This document shows positions 36,909 to 47,540 of a DNA stretch of 64,000 nucleotides, one piece after another. The translations under genes and the position numbers were made by a program. Position 1 is the first letter of the stretch. Every line of letters starts with the position of its first letter. The notes below the pieces were generated by a model, which had not been told where the DNA came from, did not search any database, and was given only the letters and a program-made list of their open reading frames with translations. Where the stretch lies: the NCBI GenBank assembly GCA_963765765.1, contig CAVXYC010000015.1, forward strand, positions 288,001 to 352,000, in the 5' to 3' direction. This stretch comes from an uncultured Chloroflexia bacterium (lineage in GTDB: Bacteria; Chloroflexota; UBA6077; JACCZL01).

Positions 36909-37097
36909 ATGACGGATGAACGCGGAAGCGAGCTAGGGCGACAGTTGGTGGCGCGTCGACGCATTGTCGAGCGACCGTGCGTCGTGTGCGGGACCACCAT
37001 TAGCGGAACGGTGAGGCGTCAATACTGCTCTAATCGATGCCGGGTGGCCGCATACACGAAGCGGAAGCGCGAACAGCGGACGAAGGAGACCAGCTGA
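36909..37097 (+). CDS. Small basic zinc-finger protein coupled to the integrase
   Basis: CVVCG-x9-YCSNRCR; its stop overlaps the integrase ATG (TGATG). Confidence 0.7.
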   Translation: MTDERGSELGRQLVARRRIVERPCVVCGTTISGTVRRQYCSNRCRVAAYTKRKREQRTKETS

Positions 37098-38236
37098 TGG
37101 CTGGACGACGCGGTCACGGGGAAGGTTCAATCTACCAGCGGCAAGACGGACGTTGGGTCGCAGTTCTGGATCTCGGTTTGAAGGAAGGAAAGCGACGACG
37201 CAAATCGCTCTACGCGTCCACTCGACGCGAGGCGCAAGAGGCCCTTAGCAAGGCGCATCATCAGCAGTTCGCAGGAAGCCTCGCCACAGGCCCGCGATTA
37301 ACGGTTGAGCGCTACGTTCAGCAATGGCTCGAAGAGTCTGTTCGTCATAGAGTCAAACCTAGGACTTTTTCGAGCTACAACCAGCTAGTACGACTTCACG
37401 TTGCCCCAGGGCTGGGCAAGTTGCAATTGGCGAAGCTTCAAGCGAAGGACTTGCAGCATTTCTACAGCAAGAAACTGGAGACTCTATCGCCGCGGACCGT
37501 CGAGTATCTTCACGCGATTATCCATCGGGCGCTCAAGGAGGCCGAACGCCTGGACCTCGTTAGCAGAAATGTGGCTGATCTAGTAAGCCCTCCTCGTCCA
37601 ACCCGAAAGTCGGTGCGATTCCTGGCACCGCGCGAAGTGGAAGCGTTTCTCGCCGCGGTCAGTGCCGATCGGCTCGGGCCACTGTTCACGGTTGCCCTAT
37701 TTACGGGGTTACGACAGGGAGAATTGCTCGGTTTGAGATGGCCCGACGTGGATTTGTCAACTCAATCCTTGACGGTCGGTCAAACACTGCAACTCATCGA
37801 TGGAAAGTTAGTCTTCGGTCAACCAAAGAGTGGTACATCACGACGCACCGTGCCATTGACGCCCCAGGCATGCGAAGCTCTGCGGGCTTGGCGGACAACG
37901 CAAGTCCAGTCTCAACTTCAAGCCGGGCCAGCGTGGCATGAGTCAGGGCTCGTGTTCACATCAGAGATTGGAACGCCGTTGTTCGCTCGAAATGTCACAA
38001 GGCGACTACACAAACTCGTTCAAGCTGCTGGGTTAGTAGATATCAAGTTCCACGAGCTTCGTCACTCGACCGCAAGTCTTCTTATTGCCGCCGGGGAGCA
38101 ACTGAAGGTCGTGCAAGAGATCCTAGGACATAGCCAGATCAGTGTGACTGCGGATTACTACAGCCATCTGGCACCAGGGCTGAAGGAAAGTGCGATGAGC
38201 CGACTCGATGCACTGGTGCGTTCCCAAGCCCGCTAG
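37097..38236 (+). CDS. int: Tyrosine recombinase/site-specific integrase
   Basis: N-terminal RRGHGEGSIYQR arm-binding domain; TGLRQGE, PKS, FHELRH, LGHS and YYSH catalytic residues. Confidence 0.96.
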   Translation: MAGRRGHGEGSIYQRQDGRWVAVLDLGLKEGKRRRKSLYASTRREAQEALSKAHHQQFAGSLATGPRLTVERYVQQWLEESVRHRVKPRTFSSYNQLVRLHVAPGLGKLQLAKLQAKDLQHFYSKKLETLSPRTVEYLHAIIHRALKEAERLDLVSRNVADLVSPPRPTRKSVRFLAPREVEAFLAAVSADRLGPLFTVALFTGLRQGELLGLRWPDVDLSTQSLTVGQTLQLIDGKLVFGQPKSGTSRRTVPLTPQACEALRAWRTTQVQSQLQAGPAWHESGLVFTSEIGTPLFARNVTRRLHKLVQAAGLVDIKFHELRHSTASLLIAAGEQLKVVQEILGHSQISVTADYYSHLAPGLKESAMSRLDALVRSQAR

Positions 38237-38645: not shown

Positions 38646-38705
38646 AAATGTCAAAGCCTGGCGACTCGCGTCAACCAGGCCTTGAAATTCGAGATTAGAA
38701 ACCGG

Positions 38706-38778
38706 TGAGCCGCCGGGGACTCGAACCCCGAACCGGCTGATTAAGAGTCAGCTGCTCTGCCAGTTGAGCTAGCGGCCC
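38706..38778 (-). tRNA. tRNA-Lys (anticodon CTT)
   Basis: GGGCCGCTAGCTCAACTGGCAGAGCAGCTGACT-CTT-AATCAGCCGGTTCGGGGTTCGAGTCCCCGGCGGCTCA folds as a cloverleaf; CCA not fully encoded. Confidence 0.97.
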
Positions 38779-38814: not shown

Positions 38815-39455
38815 ACGTGGGATGGTGCGCGGTGGTGCCGATTGGCGGGTATTCGGGCGGTCTGGCGGGACGCTCGTTGTGCGGTGGTGTCGGCCGTTTG
38901 CCCGACTAACGTGGCTTGTTTGGTCGAATGAGCTTGCGGGTTGAGTGCGAGCTTACGGTCGGGCAGGATGCCCGACACCACCGGGAATGCGATGCTCGAT
39001 GAGGTCTAGGGTGGCGGTTTTGGCGGCGCTGCGCGTGCGGGCGGGATGCCCGGGGTTACGGTTTGGCTGAGGTGGTGTAGTTATGGTCGCAACGAACGTG
39101 AGCCTATCCATCGGCCGGTAATCGTCGGCGTCGGCTTGTGTGCCCACACCGATGTGGCGCGATCGCTCGATTGGGGAATGTGGCGCAGCACCTGCACCGG
39201 CCCAGCCCGGGTGAGCTGGCGCACTCAAGCGGCGCTGTGGGAGAAGCCGGTGAGACGTGTTGGGCGCCACTTACGCGCTGGATCCCTCTCCAAGCATTTT
39301 GGGCGGGACTCCGATGCTGATGCAGCAATTGTTGCCACCGAGACTGGACAGCCAGAGACGGCTGCCCCACCGAGGCGCTCGGCCAGCGGAGGTCAATTTT
39401 CGCTCGCGGCGCTATGTGCTACGCTCTCAGCAATCAGCCCCGATGGAGTCGGCAT

Positions 39456-39950
39456 ATGACCGATACGATGGAACGGCCCATCCTGAAGCCGGGCGAGGAA
39501 TGGGTCTGGGACTACCCTCAGCCCGCGTTTATTGAGGATTCAACACGTCACGTGCGGGTTGTCTTCAATGACGTGGTCATCGCGGATACGCGGCGGGCCA
39601 AGCGCGTATGCGAGCAGGGGCAGCCGCCCGTTTTCTACATTCCGCCAGACGACGTAAAGATGGAATATCTGCAGGGGTCGGATCTCAGCACCACTTGACC
39701 ATGGCGAGGGCAGGCAGTGTACTTCACCGTTCAGGTGAACGACCGCGCTGCTGCCAACGGGGTATGGTCATACCCCAATCCCATTCCGGACGCCGAGCCG
39801 GTTCGAGATTACCTGGCGTTTTATCCAGGTAGGATGGACGCGTGCTTCGTCGATGACGAGCTCGTGAACAGCCAGGGCAGTGAATACTACGGCGGCTGGG
39901 TCATTGAAGGTATCGTCGGGCCATTCAAGAAGCGTCCCGGCGAGAAGTAG
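39456..39950 (+). CDS. DUF427 family protein with an in-frame TGA at the conserved Cys; probable selenoprotein (164 aa, Sec81)
   Basis: Both ORF halves are in the same frame: WVWDYPQP, IADTRRA, PVFYIPPDDV, TT-TGA-PWRGQAVYF, WSYPNP, LAFYPG, YYGGW, GPFK. Confidence 0.8.
39709..39755 (+). promoter_or_regulatory. Candidate bacterial SECIS element
   Basis: GGCA-G-GCAGUGU-AC-UUCACC-[GUUCA]-GGUGAA-CGACC-GCGCUGC-UGCC. The stem starts after a 10-nt spacer and the GU-initiated apical loop after 30 nt from the UGA. Confidence 0.65.
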
Positions 39951-40004
39951 CAATTTAGAGAACGCTCAAAAGAGGACTGGAAGTCACATTCGTCACTCGA
40001 CATC

Positions 40005-40039
40005 GGGCGGTGCGCTGATCTGACGCATCGCCTGTTTTT
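40005..40039 (+). terminator. Intrinsic terminator after the DUF427 gene
   Basis: GGGCGGTGCG-N9-CGCATCGCCT followed by GTTTTT. Confidence 0.65.
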
Positions 40040-40056
40040 ATCAGGGAACAGACACT

Positions 40057-40587
40057 ATGGCCGATTTCCCTACAACCCGTGACGAAGCGCTGACCGCGAT
40101 TGAGCGAGCACGCGCTGCATTCAAGCAGGCATACAAAGATGTTCCCGACGCGGCGTTACGCTACCTCCCCGAGGGCGATGATTATTCGCTCGGTGGGCTC
40201 ATCGTCCACGTGGCGAACGCCATGGAGAACTATGTGACGGTACTTGACCGGATGAAGGCTGAGAGCTTCAGACGAATGAAAGCAGCCGAGGGCTCAGGCG
40301 AAACGCCCGAAATGCTGAAGGCGTTGAAGCACGGCTTTGATGGTCCGGAGCGCGCCAGGCATTGGTCCCGGCTCGATATCGTGCACGCGGCACTGGTGAA
40401 TAATGTGAACGCTCTGGGCGATCAAGACTTCGGCCGCACCGCACCCATTCTCTTTGGCGCCGCCACCGAGCCGCTGGACACGAACGCCGCCATGATCATG
40501 GGCTGGATGATCGACCACTACCGCGACCACGTCAGTCAAGTGCGAGACATGCTGGCGGAGTGGCAGGCGGACGAGCAGCCGACTTAG
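40057..40587 (+). CDS. DinB superfamily protein
   Basis: YSLGGLIVHV and DHYRDHVSQV His triad; helical four-helix-bundle pattern. Confidence 0.8.
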   Translation: MADFPTTRDEALTAIERARAAFKQAYKDVPDAALRYLPEGDDYSLGGLIVHVANAMENYVTVLDRMKAESFRRMKAAEGSGETPEMLKALKHGFDGPERARHWSRLDIVHAALVNNVNALGDQDFGRTAPILFGAATEPLDTNAAMIMGWMIDHYRDHVSQVRDMLAEWQADEQPT

Positions 40588-40672
40588 GATCGGAGGCTGG
40601 CTGGTGTTTGCGCTGTGTCAGACTTTGTGCGCGGGAGGAACCGCACCCTTACGGGATGCGGCTCTGTCTCGG

Positions 40673-43172
40673 TCAGTCCCGGCGGACTTTGAGGCGGTCG
40701 CCTAGCTCCGCGAATGTGGTTGCCCACTCCTGGGCGAGGGAGTCGCCGTTGGCGGCTTCCTCGTAGATAGTCGGCGCTGTTTGCTGGAGGACGCGGTAAT
40801 ACACGTTCTGCGCCTTCCAGACGTCGGCCTCAAACGGAAGCTGCTCGCCCAGCGCCACAAGGGCATTTAGACGGCCGAGTAGCTCTCGGTCGTCGGGCTG
40901 TTCGGAGAACGTTGTCGCCATTGTGTCCACGGCGCGTTTCATTGCGAATCGGAGGGAGACCGTGTCGAGCGAAAGCTGCCATTCTCTCGCGCGGGTCGTG
41001 AGCGCGTCAACGGCCTCCGAATCCAGCTCTTCCTGCTCCAGACATCGGCGCAGATCGGTATTTACGATGAGCTCCACGGCTGCGCGAAGCGGTTTGGGGA
41101 TTGGCGCACCCAGGCCCACCAGGAACCTGATGAGCGGCTCGTTGTGCTCTGCGATGCGGTGGTACTCGGTCTCTGTCTCGGACAGCGTCGTATCCAGAAT
41201 TCGATCCAGTACCTGGCGCTGCTCATCCCGGAAGAGCGATCGAAGTGAATACGCGCTCTCGCCAAAATGGCGATCGAAGACGCGTATGACCTCCGGAAGG
41301 TCTGCGCGCTCGAACGGCTCGGAGACCTCCTCGATGATCTTTTGATAGGACGCTTCGTTGGCGTACTCCACAACTCCCGCGCTGAGATTGTGATCGCCCA
41401 TATGCACCGCGCCAAAGGCAAAAAGCTCGGACTCCAGGCTGATGTGGGATGTGATTCGGGCCGATCCGACGCCCAGTGAGACACGGCCAGCCTCGCGGTG
41501 CTGAAAATCGACGAGCTCAGCATCGAACCCGTAGACCGTCGCCTGCTCCGGGTATTGTTGAAAGAGGGATCGCACCGCGTAGTGCGCTGCCACTTGCTTG
41601 AGATCCACTTTGGCCGGTCGAACAAATCGCTCGTAAATCTGTCGGCCGTTGCCCATCTCGGGGATATTGCTGCGAGCCCGCTCCAACATCGCGATGAATC
41701 GTCCCTCGAGGCTCTTTGAGGCAGCGGCCGCCCGCGTAGTCACAAATGGCGGCTCCAGAAGCTCGGCGAAGCGGGCATCGGAGTTGCTTGTAAAGATCTC
41801 ATCCGCAAGCTGAATCGCTCTCCCCGCGTACTGAATGACCTGAACCGGCTCAATTCCTGAGATCTCGTCAAAGAACCAGCCACAGCTCGTGTACATGAGC
41901 ATCGCGTGACGTTGGAGCTCCATGAGCTTCAGAACCGTGGTTGTCTCCGCTTTGTTTAAGCTGCGCTTCGCGTGGCGCATCAAAAAGTCGTCAATACAGT
42001 CAGATGACCGATCCATCATGACGCTGACGTAGTCGTCCCGGGCCGTCCAGGGATCGCGCAGATATTCGCTCGCGTGCTTCTCGAATTGCGGTCCCAGCGT
42101 GTCACGCAGCCAGTCCAGCGACTCGCGCAAGGGCCTTCGCCACTCCTGATTCCAGCCTGATTGTCCGCCGGTACTGCAGCCGCAGTTTGCCCGCCAGCGC
42201 TCTATACCGTGCGCGCAGCTCCAGGACGTGTTGTCGATGACCTCGGCTTCATAGGTCGGTGGGAACCGCTCCAGATACTCACCGTAGTTGGTGATTGTGG
42301 CAATGCCGTGGCTCTCGATGTATTCCAGCGCGTAGGCGAGCGCCATATCGCCGTGGGGATGGTGGTGGCCGTACGTCTCGCCGTCAGTAGCGATGTGGAC
42401 GAGCTGCGACCAATCACGGTTGTCGCTGAAACCAGTGCGCAGCCGTTGAGCAAAGACCTCGCCGCTACCGAGCAGGTTCTCGAAGGCCACCGCTTGAGAA
42501 ATCGGACCATCGTAGAAGAACACGGCGATGCTCTTGCCGCGCGGAAGCGCAACGCGATACGCACGGGTTGGGTCAACGCCGCCGGGCCCATGGTCTTCCC
42601 AGCTCTGCTTGCCGATTTGTCGCACGCGACCCGCTTGATACGGCGAGAGCACGGTGTATTTGATGCCATGCTCTGCCATGATCGAGAGGCTCTCGAGGTC
42701 GACGGCCGTTTCGGCCAGCCACATGCCCTCGGGCTTGCGTTTGAAACGATGCTCAAAGTCAGCAATGCCCCAGATGACCTGCGTCTCCTTGTCGCGGCGA
42801 TTTGCCAGGGGCAGGATCATGTGGTTATAGGCCTGGGCAATTGCGGATCCATGGCCGGAGAATCGCTCCTGGCTCTCCAGGTCCGCCTCAAGGATGGCTT
42901 GATAGACGTCCGGCGTCCTGTTCTTCCATCCAGCCCAGGAGCGTGGGGCCGATGTTGAAGCTGATGCGCGCATAGTTGTTGACTATTGAGGCGATGCGAC
43001 CATCGCCATCAAGTATGCGGGACGTCGCGTTGGGGCCATAGCACTCCGCGGTAATGCGCTCGTTCCAGTCGTGAAACGGGTACGCGGAATCTTGAAGCTC
43101 CACCGTTTCCAGCCAGGGATTCTCCCGTGGCGGCTGATAAAAGTGGCCGTGGATGCAAATAAATCGTTCCAT
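40673..43172 (-). CDS. GH57 family glycoside hydrolase with DUF3536; frameshift near 42925
   Basis: IHGHFYQPPRENPW, YNHMILPL, GMWLAETAVD, ATDGETYGHH, MYTSCGWFFD. Confidence 0.9.
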
Positions 43173-43303
43173 GATGATGACTTAGCGTTCCTGTCTAGAT
43201 GGGCCGAGCATGGGCCGGAATTCCAGTGCGCGCACCGGAGCACGTGTTCTTGGAGCAACGTCGTGCAGACGAAAAGAATTGCTCGGTTGAAGGGGCTACA
43301 CAG

Positions 43304-45256
43304 TTAAGTAGGCTCGTTGGCGACGGGTTTCAGGAATAGCGCTGCCAGAGGCGGCAATGTCAATAAAACTGAATGGGGCTGGCCATGTCGCGATTCGGAG
43401 CTGGCTTCAACAAAGCTCGCGTTCCCGAGGCCGCTTCCCCCGTAGATGTCGGCATCGCTGTTAAGGATCTCTCGCCAGGTGCCGGGCTGTGGAACCCCAA
43501 GCTGATAACCATGCCGCGGCACGGGTGTGAAATTGAACACCGCCACAACAACGTCTTCCGGACTTTCGCCAATGCGCATCCAGCTCAGTACGCTGTTGTT
43601 AATGTCGCCACCGTCGATCCAGGTGTAGCCGCCGGGCTCAAAATCACGTGCGTGCAGAGCGGTTGTCTCCTTGTACATGGCGTTCAGGTCCGTGAGCCAT
43701 TGCTGAACCCCTCGGTGCTGAGGGTACTCCAGCGCATGCCACTCTACGCTTGAATCGTGCCGCCATTCGCTCCACTGGCCAATCTCGTCGCCCATGAAGA
43801 GCAGCTTTTTGCCCGGTTGGCCATACATGTAGCCATAGAGCAGTCGAAGGTTGGCGAACTTTTGCCAGTCATCGCCGGGCATCTTGCTGAAGAGCGAGCC
43901 TTTGCCGTGGACCACCTCATCGTGTGATAGCGGTAGAACAAAGTTCTCTTGAAAGGCGTACACCATACGGAAAGTGATCTCGTTGTGGTGATACTGGCGA
44001 TAGATGGGCGCACGCGACATGTACTCGAGTGTGTCGTGCATCCAGCCCATGTCCCACTTCATACCGAAGCCCAGTCCGCCGGCATACGTGGGCCGTGACA
44101 CCATGGGCCAGGAGGTTGACTCCTCAGCCATGGTCTGCACATCCGGGAAGGTGCCGTAAACCTCTTCGTTGAGCCGGCGAAGAAAGGAGATCGCCTCGAG
44201 GTTCTCTCGTCCGCCGAACTCGTTGGGGATCCACTCGCCTTCTTTACGGGAGTAGTCGAGATAGAGCATGGAGGCCACGGCATCTACGCGCAGTCCGTCC
44301 GCATGGTACCGATCCAGCCAATAGAGCGCACTGCTCAACAAGAACGATCGCACCTCATTGCGACCATAATTGAAGATCAGGCTCTTCCAGTCCGGGTGGA
44401 AGCCTTTACGCTGGTCTTCATGCTCGTACAGATGTGTCCCGTCGAAATAGCCCAGGCCGTGTTCATCGGACGGAAAGTGCGATGGCACCCAGTCCAGTAT
44501 GACTCCGATCCCTCGTTGATGAAGACCATCGACCAGAGTCATGAAATCCTGGGGCGTTCCAAAGCGGCTTGATGGGGCAAAGTAGCCGGTGGTCTGATAG
44601 CCCCACGAGCCAAAGAATGGGTGCTCCATCACGGGCATAAGCTCCACGTGCGTGAAGCCGAGCTGCTCAACATAATCCGCGAGCTTTGTCGCCAGCTCCG
44701 CATAGTTGAGCGACCGGTTGCCATCATCGGGCACGCGCATCCACGATCCGAGATGCACTTCGTAGATGCTCATTGGAGCGCGGCCGCTATTGTGCTTGCC
44801 ACGCGATGACATCCAGTCGGTATCACGCCAGTCATAGGCTAGGTCCCAGACCACGGAGCCCGTTCGCGGCGGCATCTCGTGATACACGCCAAACGGATCA
44901 GCCTTCTCCACCCGGTAAGCCCTGTTTCGGGATGCCACGAAGTACTTGTAGATGGTGCCGGGCTGGATGTCCGGGATGAAGCCCTCCCAGATTCCGGATG
45001 ACCCGCGTGGACGTAACTCATGGCTGGTCCGATTCCAGCCATTGAAGTCGCCCATGACGTTGACGGCCTCGGCGTTCGGCGCCCACACCGCGAAATACAC
45101 GCCTTCAACCCCATCAACCGTGACGGGATGTGCCCCCAGGCGCTCATAGAGTCGTGAATGGTTGCCCTCATTGAACAGGTGCAGATCCACTTCACCGAGG
45201 AGGCTCGGAGACTTCCCGCTCAGTACTGGCTTGGTGCTATTTGTGCCTTGAGTCAC
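43304..45256 (-). CDS. glgB: 1,4-alpha-glucan branching enzyme
   Basis: FAVWAPNA, YEVHLGSW, SWGYQ, DWVPSHF, GLRVDAVASMLY, AEEST, LSHDEVVHGK. Confidence 0.97.
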   Translation of the reverse strand: MTQGTNSTKPVLSGKSPSLLGEVDLHLFNEGNHSRLYERLGAHPVTVDGVEGVYFAVWAPNAEAVNVMGDFNGWNRTSHELRPRGSSGIWEGFIPDIQPGTIYKYFVASRNRAYRVEKADPFGVYHEMPPRTGSVVWDLAYDWRDTDWMSSRGKHNSGRAPMSIYEVHLGSWMRVPDDGNRSLNYAELATKLADYVEQLGFTHVELMPVMEHPFFGSWGYQTTGYFAPSSRFGTPQDFMTLVDGLHQRGIGVILDWVPSHFPSDEHGLGYFDGTHLYEHEDQRKGFHPDWKSLIFNYGRNEVRSFLLSSALYWLDRYHADGLRVDAVASMLYLDYSRKEGEWIPNEFGGRENLEAISFLRRLNEEVYGTFPDVQTMAEESTSWPMVSRPTYAGGLGFGMKWDMGWMHDTLEYMSRAPIYRQYHHNEITFRMVYAFQENFVLPLSHDEVVHGKGSLFSKMPGDDWQKFANLRLLYGYMYGQPGKKLLFMGDEIGQWSEWRHDSSVEWHALEYPQHRGVQQWLTDLNAMYKETTALHARDFEPGGYTWIDGGDINNSVLSWMRIGESPEDVVVAVFNFTPVPRHGYQLGVPQPGTWREILNSDADIYGGSGLGNASFVEASSESRHGQPHSVLLTLPPLAALFLKPVANEPT

Positions 45257-47370
45257 GATGTTCCCGTCTGACGCGCTCGATGAATCATGTTGAGCGTACC
45301 GAGTACGTCCTGATTCGATTTGAACTCTTCCATGGAATAGCGGGCTTTACGCCGCCAGTTCTCCCAATCATCGCCCGTACCGGGGACGTTCTGTGGCTCA
45401 CGCTCGAGCCAGAGATCCTCTAGCGTGACCATCAAGACCTGCGCAGGGCCGGCGGCGAGTCGCTCCAGTATGCCCTGAAGCGCCACCATCGCTGAGTCGG
45501 CGCCTTCAAGAACCTGCGCTTTGCCCAGAAATCTGAGGAGCGCCTGCTCGAGATGGGCCCGCTCTTCGCGTCGTTCTCTAAAATCATCATCGTCTATGAG
45601 CTCGAGCCGGCGCATAATTTCGATGTCCAGCCCATCCCAGAAGCCGCCGAAAAGCACCGTATCATGAGTATTCACGCTGGCCATTGAAGTCGCCGGCGCG
45701 GGCGGTAAAGCCTTCTCAACTGGGGATGACATTTCAAATTGCGCTACATACATGCGCAGGAAGTCATGTTCTGTCATGGCGGCCCGGACCGACTCCGGTA
45801 CGGTCCCGAGATCTTCCCCAACAATCGGGCACTGGAAGCGACGCGACTCTAGAGCAAGAATCGCGTACATCTCGTCAGGCGCGAATCGAACGTAGACACC
45901 ATCTTGAGCGCCCATGCCTTGCGGGATCCAGAACAGGCGCATGAGACCCATGACGTGATCGATGCGCAATGCACCCGCAAAGCGCAGGTGATTGCGTATT
46001 GCGTCGATGAAGTAGCTGTATCCCTGGTCGCGGATGGCCTGAGGCTGCATGGGCGGAAAGCCCCAGTTCTGTCCGCCGGTAAAGAACATATCGGGTGGCG
46101 CCCCCACCGATATGCCGTTTGCAAACGAGGCTCGCTCGCGCCACGTGTCGTACGAGTCGGGATGCACCCCCAGTGGAAAATCGAGGTACAGCCTGGCTCC
46201 CACTTCGCGGGAGCGGTCAGCCAGCCGATTGATCTGCTGGAAGAGCTGCCATTGCGCGTACAGATGGTAGCGTTGCCGAGCGGGGTCGAAGTCGCTTACC
46301 TCGATCCGCCCGTCGCGGGGGCCGTCCGGCCAGACGATCCAGCCGGATCGCTGTCGTTCTTGAACAGCGCGGAATTGGGCGTAGTCGTTCGCTCGAGGCT
46401 GTCTGGCAAGAAACGCTTGGAAGCCCGAATCGCGTTCTCCGCCTCGCTCGAAGAAGCACGCTGAAAGCGGCTCGAGCACTGCGCGCTGACCCTCAGACCA
46501 CGCCCGATAGTCGACGTGATTGACGTGGTTTTGCGAAGACAACCGGGGCTGGTTGGCTAGCAGCGACTGCGCGGCCGGGCAGCTCGCCAGCTCGGGAATC
46601 TGCTCGAGGTCCAGGAAGAGCTCGTTCCAGAACAGTCGCGAGGCTGGTGAATACGGGCTCGGATCGAACGGCTCATCCAGAAACGTGGCCAGCAGCGGCA
46701 GGGTGCCTACCAGCGACCCGCCCATTCTGGCGGTCCACGAAGTGAATTCTTCGAGATCGCTGAGCGTGCCACCCCATCGGCTATGCCGCGAGCGGAGCGC
46801 GTGGAGCGGCATGAAGACGCCCCATCGACGCGCCTGATCGCTATCAGCGGCGTATGTCCATGCCGTCTTCGGCGCGCTGATGATACGTGACTCATCGCGG
46901 CGTCCGTCGATTTCGACGCTGAACCGGTGGTAACCCATCGGCATGTCCTGGAGCTGACCTAGCTCTTTGACGAGATACAGCGCACCGTCAACTTCCGCGG
47001 TTTCAATCGTTGTCAGATCGGAGAGCGTGACGCTCCAGGGGTGTTGGCTGCCGTTCTCGAGCCGGAGCACGCAGGCACACCGCGATCGCTCGAGACTGGC
47101 CGGGATTCGAAGGGTGGTGCTGGATGAGCGACCGCCCCAGGCGATCAGCACGGGCTCCAGGCGGCGCGACCAGCGATCGATCTGTCGCTCCCGCAGTGCG
47201 CTGGGCGCGTCGGCGGGCGAGCCCAGAGGCGCGCCAAGTGATTGCAGCACCTTGATGAGCGCATCATCGGGCGCTGAACGCTCAGCGCCCCAGATATCGC
47301 GGTAGGTTGTGTCGATCCCGTAAGTCGTAGCGAGCGCGGCGAGCCCGGGATCGTTTGCAGATGTTCTCAT
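45253..47370 (-). CDS. malQ: 4-alpha-glucanotransferase (amylomaltase)
   Basis: SPYSPASR, GAPPD..GQNWGFPP, LRIDHVMG, GEDLG, NTHD, NVPGT..NWRRK. Confidence 0.95.
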   Translation of the reverse strand: MRTSANDPGLAALATTYGIDTTYRDIWGAERSAPDDALIKVLQSLGAPLGSPADAPSALRERQIDRWSRRLEPVLIAWGGRSSSTTLRIPASLERSRCACVLRLENGSQHPWSVTLSDLTTIETAEVDGALYLVKELGQLQDMPMGYHRFSVEIDGRRDESRIISAPKTAWTYAADSDQARRWGVFMPLHALRSRHSRWGGTLSDLEEFTSWTARMGGSLVGTLPLLATFLDEPFDPSPYSPASRLFWNELFLDLEQIPELASCPAAQSLLANQPRLSSQNHVNHVDYRAWSEGQRAVLEPLSACFFERGGERDSGFQAFLARQPRANDYAQFRAVQERQRSGWIVWPDGPRDGRIEVSDFDPARQRYHLYAQWQLFQQINRLADRSREVGARLYLDFPLGVHPDSYDTWRERASFANGISVGAPPDMFFTGGQNWGFPPMQPQAIRDQGYSYFIDAIRNHLRFAGALRIDHVMGLMRLFWIPQGMGAQDGVYVRFAPDEMYAILALESRRFQCPIVGEDLGTVPESVRAAMTEHDFLRMYVAQFEMSSPVEKALPPAPATSMASVNTHDTVLFGGFWDGLDIEIMRRLELIDDDDFRERREERAHLEQALLRFLGKAQVLEGADSAMVALQGILERLAAGPAQVLMVTLEDLWLEREPQNVPGTGDDWENWRRKARYSMEEFKSNQDVLGTLNMIHRARQTGTS

Positions 47371-47444
47371 CAAGGGTGGCTCAGCGTTCCAATTTGGCCC
47401 GGCAAGAAACGAGAGCGGCTTCATCGGTCTCAGGAGACCTATGA

Positions 47445-47540
47445 AGCGCGGTGGATTGTGCCCCGCGAAATTCTGCTGTTCGAGCGTGCAGACGAGGCCG
47501 AGGAGTGCGGTTCCGCGGGGCACAAGACCACCGCGCTACG
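47445..47540. repeat. REPIN-like element of the 9196 family between glgE and malQ
   Basis: AGCGCGGTGGATTGTGCCCCGCG ... CGCGGGGCACAAGACCACCGCGCTACG. Confidence 0.8.

Follow-up and report, generated by a model that had tools for sequence, protein, structure and literature searches.

Bacterial selenoprotein genes such as Escherichia coli fdhF carry a selenocysteine insertion sequence (SECIS) element within the open reading frame (ORF), where it is read by SelB. According to the bSECISearch criteria, the apical loop of such an element reportedly lies about 16–37 nucleotides (nt) 3′ of the UGA and holds a G early in the loop. Here we describe a stretch of 64,000 nt (hereafter the window; positions 288,001–352,000 of contig CAVXYC010000015.1, forward strand) from an uncultured Chloroflexia bacterium (assembly GCA_963765765.1), in which a gene of the DUF427 family (PF04248) at 39456–39950 (+) is interrupted by an in-frame TGA at 39696–39698. 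Judged by sequence comparison, it appears to be an intact and genuine selenoprotein gene of an uncatalogued family, a reading to which we assign a probability of roughly 0.88. Bacterial genes with a SECIS element inside the ORF, among them the selD of the same genome, likewise have the UGA on a Cys column and a hairpin directly 3′ of it, and selA, selB, selC and selD are all present. In selD, this hairpin is a stem of 7 bp topped by a GUG loop some 33 nt 3′ of the UGA, judged by eye. The geometry of the DUF427 hairpin resembles this GU-first arrangement, whereas its structure differs from those of known genes of this kind in being long (~75 nt), in having three tiers and in pairing the UGA itself.

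The Cys-type DUF427 proteins, for which 3DJM of Rhodobacter sphaeroides is the sole solved relative, belong to the same family as the window protein. The profile matches 3DJM with E 7.9e-21 and aligns its Cys column, and the predicted model of the window protein superposes on it with Z 16.5 and a root-mean-square deviation of 1.5 Å over 112 residues. In contrast to the Cys-type genes, the window gene presumably encodes selenocysteine (Sec) where those have Cys, and its coding region contains an RNA hairpin. The product, at ~165 residues, is of a long type that is extended at both the N and the C terminus and has another conserved cysteine (Cys130). The full-text literature searched on DUF427, PF04248 and COG2343 describes no Sec form, with the proviso that catalogue supplements (e.g. 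BSepDB, PMC13326102) may list more, and a literature search with the Pfam short name NTP_transf_9 gave only unrelated plant work. In the available portions of both sources, the table of prokaryotic selenoprotein families in a 2026 review (PMC13188914) and the deep-Sep report (PMC12013277) name other DUF families, and not DUF427 or PF04248. The literature searched thus agrees with a first-pass annotation of the window, in which DUF427 was not recognized as an established selenoprotein family. Sec-DUF427 would add a family to the bacterial selenoproteome.

Two further systems bear on the possible role of the protein. MsrB, including the mammalian selenoprotein MsrB1, is of the same β-tent fold class and combines a catalytic Cys or Sec with a resolving Cys, a logic that DUF427 may share; there is no significant sequence similarity between MsrB and the DUF427 protein. 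The text available from PMC4287342 places DUF427 in the β-tent fold and describes it as devoid of the MsrB zinc site. The second system is the three-gene cluster senA-senB-senC of Variovorax paradoxus for selenoneine, a selenium antioxidant (bioRxiv 10.1101/2022.04.13.486033). SenA, SenB and selD/senC are likewise clustered in a sister genome of the same genus (G001) and on contig 21 (C21) of the window's own genome (G000). As far as the available part of that preprint describes it, the Variovorax cluster comes without DUF427 or DinB_2, whereas here a DinB_2 gene and two genes for Sec-DUF427 adjoin it in divergent orientation, and the DUF427 copy in the window has moved away from the cluster.

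Reading frame and cysteine columns

The two ORF fragments noted in the first-pass annotation proved to be a single frame of 164 codons, which runs from an ATG at 39456 to a TAG at 39948–39950 (+) and is split solely by the TGA at 39696–39698. The latter is codon 81, in the context DLSTT-U-PWRGQAVYF, and a GGAG lies 7 nt 5′ of the ATG. Read through, the protein matches PF04248 over residues 33–124 (E 2.4e-34, 117.4 bits, cut-off 22.1); a scan with NCBIfam release 20 gave no model matching either this protein or the product of the downstream DinB_2 gene. Annotation pipelines cut the gene in two and file the halves as separate proteins, and reading the TGA as Sec restores the full-length protein.

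HMMER, run against 1.84 billion representatives, returned 5,531 matches at E ≤ 0.001, and column counts were made on 46 full-length single-domain homologues that had been picked by coverage, not by residue. At the TGA column, Cys is present in 42 of these, next to Asp in two, Ser in one and Gly in one, and 3DJM has Cys there too. The TGA does therefore sit on a conserved DUF427 cysteine, as had been claimed in the first-pass annotation, and Sec at this near-invariant position would mark the reactive centre of a widespread family. The first-pass annotation had also pointed to a second cysteine, in RVCEQ where RVLET is usual, as a potential resolving residue. The departure from the usual motif is real, this column (Cys52) being Leu in 31, Ile in 7 and Val in 5 homologues (43/46) and Cys in 3/46. 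As a resolving residue Cys52 is weakened, since it is restricted to one of the two clades of Sec forms described below (clade A) and is rare among the homologues. Cys130 (in MDAC) is the better candidate because it is Cys in 41/46 homologues and in 12/12 Sec forms.

Conservation of the TGA in relatives

The TGA recurs at the identical column in 12 genes, which form two paralogous clades, A and B. Two of these genes each are found in the window's genome, in the sister genome and in the metagenome contigs L124, L129 and L131, and one each in the metagenome contigs L132 and L135. The window gene is of clade A. Its clade-B paralogue in the same genome (STUPWKGAAEYF) is located at C21:109036–109443, divergent from selD, while the sister genome has clades A and B in tandem, both with the TGA. 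The 92%-identical contig L135 has kept the TGA. This two-paralogue clade of Sec-DUF427 in soil Chloroflexota is new here. Homologues with TGA at the same column, as expected from the first-pass annotation, were thus found: the 12 genes, a short form on the metagenome contig L123 and a two-domain form in the genome G396; in the 12 genes the hairpin is conserved as well (see below).

The relatives were collected by several searches. A scan of metagenomes with the pattern U-P-W-K/R-G-x-A-x-Y-F gave 13 stretches, seven of which were chance matches and six real. The real ones hold nine genes, namely A and B on L124, L129 and L131, B on L132, A on L135 and, on L123, a 95-residue short Sec-DUF427 (TTUPWKG). 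Applied to one genome per species, the pattern gave six stretches, where only the sister-genome contig (two matches) is DUF427 and five are chance matches. Because the pattern requires U-P-W-K/R-G-x-A-x-Y-F, it skips other Sec forms, such as the UPIKG form of G396, and cannot gauge the spread of the family. G396, an AT-rich genome of 1.7 Mb from the same phylum, encodes a two-domain DUF427 protein (C9:121777–122052) with Sec in the first domain (THUPIKG) and Ser at that column in the second; its selD also has an in-frame TGA. In a phylum sample of 401 genomes, TGA forms occurred in G000, G001 and G396 among the matches listed (150 of 221), and in an order-wide search of 39 genomes only in the window's genus.

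TGA, and not TGC or TGT, is the codon at this position in L135, in the sister genome and in four more metagenome contigs. It is also unchanged in contigs of the DNA runs X1 and X2 and of the RNA library X15; this evidence consists of contigs, not raw reads, and has no bearing on the level of expression. The metatranscriptomic X15 contig has a length of 386 nt with 21 differences, and an RNA library may contain DNA. A contig of a further run, X3, ends 2 nt before the TGA.

A SECIS-like hairpin 3′ of the TGA

The stem-loop described in the first-pass annotation, at 39709–39755 with a GU-first loop 30 nt from the UGA, equals exactly the middle and apical helices of a larger, three-tier SECIS-like hairpin at 39696–39770 (+). 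The basal helix comprises the UGA itself (39696–39703, paired with 39763–39770), the middle helix pairs 39709–39720 with 39745–39755, and the apical helix pairs 39722–39728 with 39734–39741 below a GUUCA loop (39729–39733). In clade A this loop starts 30 nt after the UGA and with a G, within the placement of 16–37 nt and an early G given above. The 81-nt stretch folds with −37.5 kcal/mol, as compared to −26.7 ± 3.1 kcal/mol for 200 shuffles (z −3.5), and none of the shuffles folded as well.

Constraint on the RNA is visible at synonymous sites. In pairwise Nei–Gojobori comparisons (10 pairs per clade, 20 in total), the synonymous divergence (dS) over codons +1 to +26 from the TGA was 0.05–0.88, severalfold below both flanks and so in 20/20 pairs. 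Where the amino acid of a column is invariant, the codon is invariant too in 9/15 columns within this region versus 15/76 elsewhere in clade A (Fisher p 0.003), and in 8/17 versus 6/62 in clade B (Fisher p 0.001). The sequence GTA-TGG-TCA, which is the partner of UGA-CCN-UG, is identical in 12/12 genes. Standard pairs make up 97.5% (A) and 96% (B) of the pair cells, a value that drops to 23–52% when the partners are slid by 1–3 columns. The compensatory pair in clade A is an A-U to C-G exchange distributed 3:3, with both changes at synonymous third positions; that in clade B is an A-U to U-A exchange in 2/6 genes, accompanied by one A-G mismatch.

For the 3′ arm of the apical stem, the two clades use different residues, Q/T-V-N/K in A and H-G-E in B, with an offset of about one codon, and this favours a signal at the RNA level. 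The same is favoured by the stronger folding of Sec than of Cys forms: z values of the 12 Sec forms range from −1.6 to −4.5 (mean −3.1), whereas the corresponding 84 nt give a mean of −0.5 over 58 distinct genes of the Cys form. The short form on L123 shows no unusual fold in this frame (z −0.7). Such quantitative evidence for translation and for RNA constraint in Sec-DUF427 is new here.

Selenocysteine machinery and proposed decoding of the UGA

The source assembly (6.49 Mb in 33 contigs, 92% complete) holds selA (555 bits) with a directly adjoining selB (312+ bits), and a selD (382 bits) of the Sec type, i.e. with one in-frame TGA of its own. In a search of the whole genome, ARAGORN located one tRNA-SeC of 86 nt with a UCA anticodon, on the window's own contig at a distance of 120 kb. 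The machinery on which the first-pass annotation had made its proposal depend is thus present in the genome. A genome search with the Rfam tRNA-Sec model gave a sole match over the gathering score, which is a tRNA-Ser(GCU) according to ARAGORN and was rejected, and an Rfam scan around selA, selB and selD revealed nothing relevant. TGA is not reassigned in this genome, where it is the commonest stop, terminating 771 of 1,624 open frames of at least 400 codons and three of the six genes that neighbour DUF427. Decoding would proceed by SelB and tRNA-Sec, with the ~75-nt hairpin that starts at the UGA presumably steering the insertion of Sec.

The alternative that survives best is recoding of the UGA as a residue other than Sec, either by a near-cognate Trp or Cys tRNA or by a Cys-tRNA-Sec that inserts Cys. 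The identity of the inserted residue is not readable from sequence alone, and a hairpin could promote read-through in general. Still, we consider such recoding very improbable in view of the complete Sec machinery, of a selD that is Sec-type in all three genomes with TGA-form DUF427 (G000, G001 and G396), and of a hairpin geometry that, by eye, is like that after the UGA of selD. Sec at a conserved Cys column is, moreover, the standard signature of a selenoprotein.

Translation and selection beyond the TGA

A survey of a 5.8-billion-protein collection yielded 15 short proteins. Nine are N-terminal fragments whose last residue directly precedes the Sec column (63–98% identity) and three are C-terminal fragments that begin at V/M-YFTV (P0004, P0006 and P0009); the rest comprise one Cys form cut off at its end and two unrelated C-terminal pieces. 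Between orthologues, synonymous sites are near saturation (dS 0.7 to >3). For the 60 codons upstream of the TGA, dS was 0.97–3.3 (two pairs saturated) and the ratio of nonsynonymous to synonymous divergence (dN/dS) 0.01–0.22. For codons +27 to +80, dS was 0.72–2.5 (six pairs saturated) and dN/dS 0.01–0.21 (14 computable pairs). As the ratio is similar on either side of the TGA, the downstream protein is as constrained as the upstream part, and the region 3′ of the UGA is translated and under strong purifying selection.

These data also bear on a split gene, in which translation would stop at the UGA, the C-terminal half would be made from the GTG at 39717 and the two polypeptides would assemble. 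The separate annotation of the halves by gene callers, with P0004, P0006 and P0009 starting at V/M-YFTV, fits this arrangement, as does the GTG found in clade A seven codons after the TGA. We nevertheless regard it as highly improbable: four of the six clade-B genes lack an internal start there because the codon is GAG (Glu), in none of the 12 genes are the halves separated or in different frames, and the interruption coincides with the conserved Cys, within a β-strand of a single compact domain. A pseudogene, i.e. a TGC/TGT-to-TGA nonsense mutation in a Cys-type DUF427 gene with an incidental hairpin, is strongly disfavoured and retains hardly any probability, for although a single substitution suffices to make TGA from a Cys codon, other genes of the assembly are broken and a selD remnant and an integrase are close by, the same TGA is shared by 12 genes near synonymous saturation with a downstream dN/dS of 0.01–0.21, nine database fragments of 63–98% identity terminate at the same residue, and the synonymous sites 3′ of the TGA are constrained.

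Several observations count against a selenoprotein gene. The covariation is thin, with one compensatory pair per clade from few and related sequences, and shuffles equal the observed covariation score in 26/500 cases for clade A and 98/500 for clade B. Mismatches occur in the apical stem (C-C in the clade-A gene of L129, A-G in the clade-B gene of L124), and the minimal loop of clade B is CAAGC, in which G comes first only with two closing pairs open. Nine of the 58 Cys forms reach z ≤ −1.57 with mononucleotide shuffles. Rfam scores the UCA tRNA as a generic tRNA (33 bits), so that its assignment as tRNA-SeC comes from ARAGORN only, and the copy of clade B carries a frameshift in this assembly. 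On balance, Sec insertion at the TGA as proposed in the first-pass annotation is supported; the checks named there as able to overturn it, where run, did not do so.

Genomic context and the selenoneine genes

Upstream of the DUF427 gene and divergent from it, the window contains a remnant of the 5′ end of selD/senC at 39086–39257 (−). This piece of ~170 nt is 78% identical over 176 nt to the 5′ end of selD on C21 of the same genome, and 75% identical over 124 nt to selD of the sister genome. Downstream, at 40057–40587 (+), follows a gene of the DinB_2 superfamily (176 amino acids; PF12867, E 1.3e-8), a kept partner of Sec-DUF427 genes that is found after DUF427 also in G001, L124 and L135. In tblastn searches DinB_2 was found beside Sec forms only and not at Cys-form loci, a result of limited weight given the short flanks and the divergence of the family. 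Between the two genes, the first-pass annotation had seen a normal terminator after the TAG. A consensus terminator scan gave no site after the DUF427 gene; folding of 39990–40045 did reveal an 11-pair hairpin (−22.4 kcal/mol, z −3.3) followed by UGUUUUUA, so that a terminator-like hairpin with a U run can be placed at 40004–40041 (+).

The full arrangement is seen on contig C503 of the sister genome. Here, DUF427-A, DUF427-B and DinB_2 follow one another in one direction, and selD (with TGA), a PhnD-type gene, PhnC, PhnE, SenA and SenB in the other. SenA (NF041186; 480 bits, cut-off 420) and SenB (TIGR04348; 363 bits, cut-off 300) both score over their cut-offs, while the PhnD-type binding protein gives only a weak match (147 bits, cut-off 250) to TIGR04553, the model of a putative selenate transporter. 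On C21 of the window's genome, DUF427-B is divergent from selD, PhnC, PhnE, SenA and SenB, a set that lacks clade A but is otherwise the same. The module is accordingly divided in this genome, with clade B beside selD and senA/senB on C21, and clade A with DinB_2 in the window. As clade A, DinB_2 and a 5′ remnant of selD occur together in the window, the latter holds a displaced piece of the selD-DUF427 module, and a misassembly is not at the root of this arrangement because L135 shows the same order of clade A and DinB_2. Adjacency to the sen cluster is observed for the orthologue in the sister genome and for the clade-B paralogue on C21; the window gene shares in it only through the selD remnant. 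The placement of two Sec paralogues in a selenoneine cluster is new here and provides a testable hypothesis on the substrate.

A tyrosine-recombinase (phage integrase) gene at 37037–38236 (+) adjoins the 3′ end of a tRNA-Lys(CUU) at 38704–38778 (−). Located just upstream of the selD remnant, the pair likely represents the boundary of a genomic island.

An association of DUF427 with synthases of the EgtB/SenA type can also be traced in published counts. According to the available part of PMC13674229, DUF427 (COG2343) is found within ±5 kb of 5.7% of all NHISS (EgtB/SenA-type synthase) genes, which places it between EgtE (6.2%) and SenC (6.3%) on one side and an OpuB-type permease on the other; in that part of the text the authors leave the frequency without comment. 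The count is consistent with a recurrent, minority association between DUF427 and the synthase.

The short Sec-DUF427 on L123 has a context of its own. In L123:147–5112 it is encoded on one strand between a ferredoxin-thioredoxin-reductase-like/rubredoxin-like gene, whose match to FtrB-type models is weak, and an OsmF/ProVW-type betaine ABC importer, which NCBIfam assigns to the OsmF glycine-betaine type (422 bits, cut-off 400). These neighbours are suggestive of a betaine or thiol-redox context.

Fold and possible function

An AlphaFold model calculated from a 47-row alignment reached a pLDDT of 96. Next to 3DJM (Foldseek E 2.7e-10), structural matches were obtained with Mis18/Yippee (Z 7.8–6.5), the Cereblon CULT domain (Z 5.5), the RIG-I C-terminal domain (Z 5.5), human MsrB1 (3MAO, Z 4.7), S. 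aureus MsrB (Z 3.9) and MSS4 (Z 3.6). Z values as low as those with MsrB point to a shared β-tent fold class and not to a function.

Four features together lead us to infer a Sec-dependent reductase: Sec takes the place of the family's conserved Cys, another Cys is conserved too, the fold class is like that of MsrB, and the gene belongs to the cluster context described above. Sec81 would act as nucleophile or redox centre, with Cys130 as its probable resolving residue. By analogy to its fold relative MsrB, the enzyme may act on an oxidized chalcogen species of the selenoneine/ergothioneine pathway, such as a selenoxide or a selenenic acid, and reduce it; the oxidized enzyme would be re-reduced by a thiol system. 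A role as a Sec-based reductase in selenoneine/ergothioneine metabolism is therefore plausible in outline, and we hold it to be rather unlikely as it stands.

Selenoneine is currently assumed to form from the SenA product without an enzyme; the available text of the Variovorax preprint (bioRxiv 10.1101/2022.04.13.486033) leaves the conversion of the selenenic acid into selenoneine to “reduction or disproportionation”. Very tentatively, the two Sec-DUF427 paralogues, perhaps together with DinB_2, might constitute a missing enzymatic, reductive arm of selenoneine metabolism, which would reduce the selenenic acid or selenoxide derived from SenA or recycle oxidized selenoneine or ergothioneine. 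If true, this would provide a first function for DUF427, a large family of 5,531 representative clusters. It would also account for the rank of DUF427 as the most frequent neighbour of EgtB/SenA-type synthases that still lacks an explanation, in the part of PMC13674229 available (5.7%).

A number of results count against such a role. The likeness to MsrB is low (Z 4.7, 6% identity). SenA exceeds its cut-off in 7/39 genomes of the order, and the six other than the sister genome have no DUF427 on the SenA contig. Across the phylum sample, a DUF427 gene lies within 10 kb of an EgtB-like gene on the same contig only in G000, G001 and G142 among the matches listed (150 of 221), the two genes being 8 kb apart in G142. 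The tallies for the order and the phylum include genomes flagged as unpublished (G293, G006, G075), and none of the individual claims depends on these. The functional link between DUF427 and selenoneine is thus local, not general.

Further observations

Two genes of the selenoneine cluster on C21 are broken by indels in this assembly. In the clade-B DUF427 gene (C21:109036–109443), a 1-nt insertion in a G run, as compared to L132, shifts the N-terminal frame, which could reflect either a genuine frameshift or a fault of the assembly. The second indel-type break affects senA (C21:112756–114058; L136:2194–3565), which is split into two frames, a DinB_2 part and an FGE-sulfatase part, and is intact in the sister genome. 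In another genome, a SenA/FGE-sulfatase-like match of 177 bits (G030:C15:858758–859489) has one in-frame TGA within an open frame of 595 residues and may represent either a further selenoprotein or a disrupted gene.

Beyond the DinB_2 gene, the window continues at 40673–47523 (−) with alpha-glucan genes, encoding GH57/DUF3536, a GlgB-type branching enzyme and the 4-alpha-glucanotransferase MalQ. This run is an ordinary glycogen-type cluster and unconnected to Sec-DUF427. In between, after the DinB_2 gene, the 38-nt stretch 40630–40667 shares 97% identity with a sequence immediately 3′ of DinB_2 in the sister genome. The same 38 nt are 94% identical, in inverted orientation, to a second place in that genome about 250 nt off, and represent a small conserved repeat.

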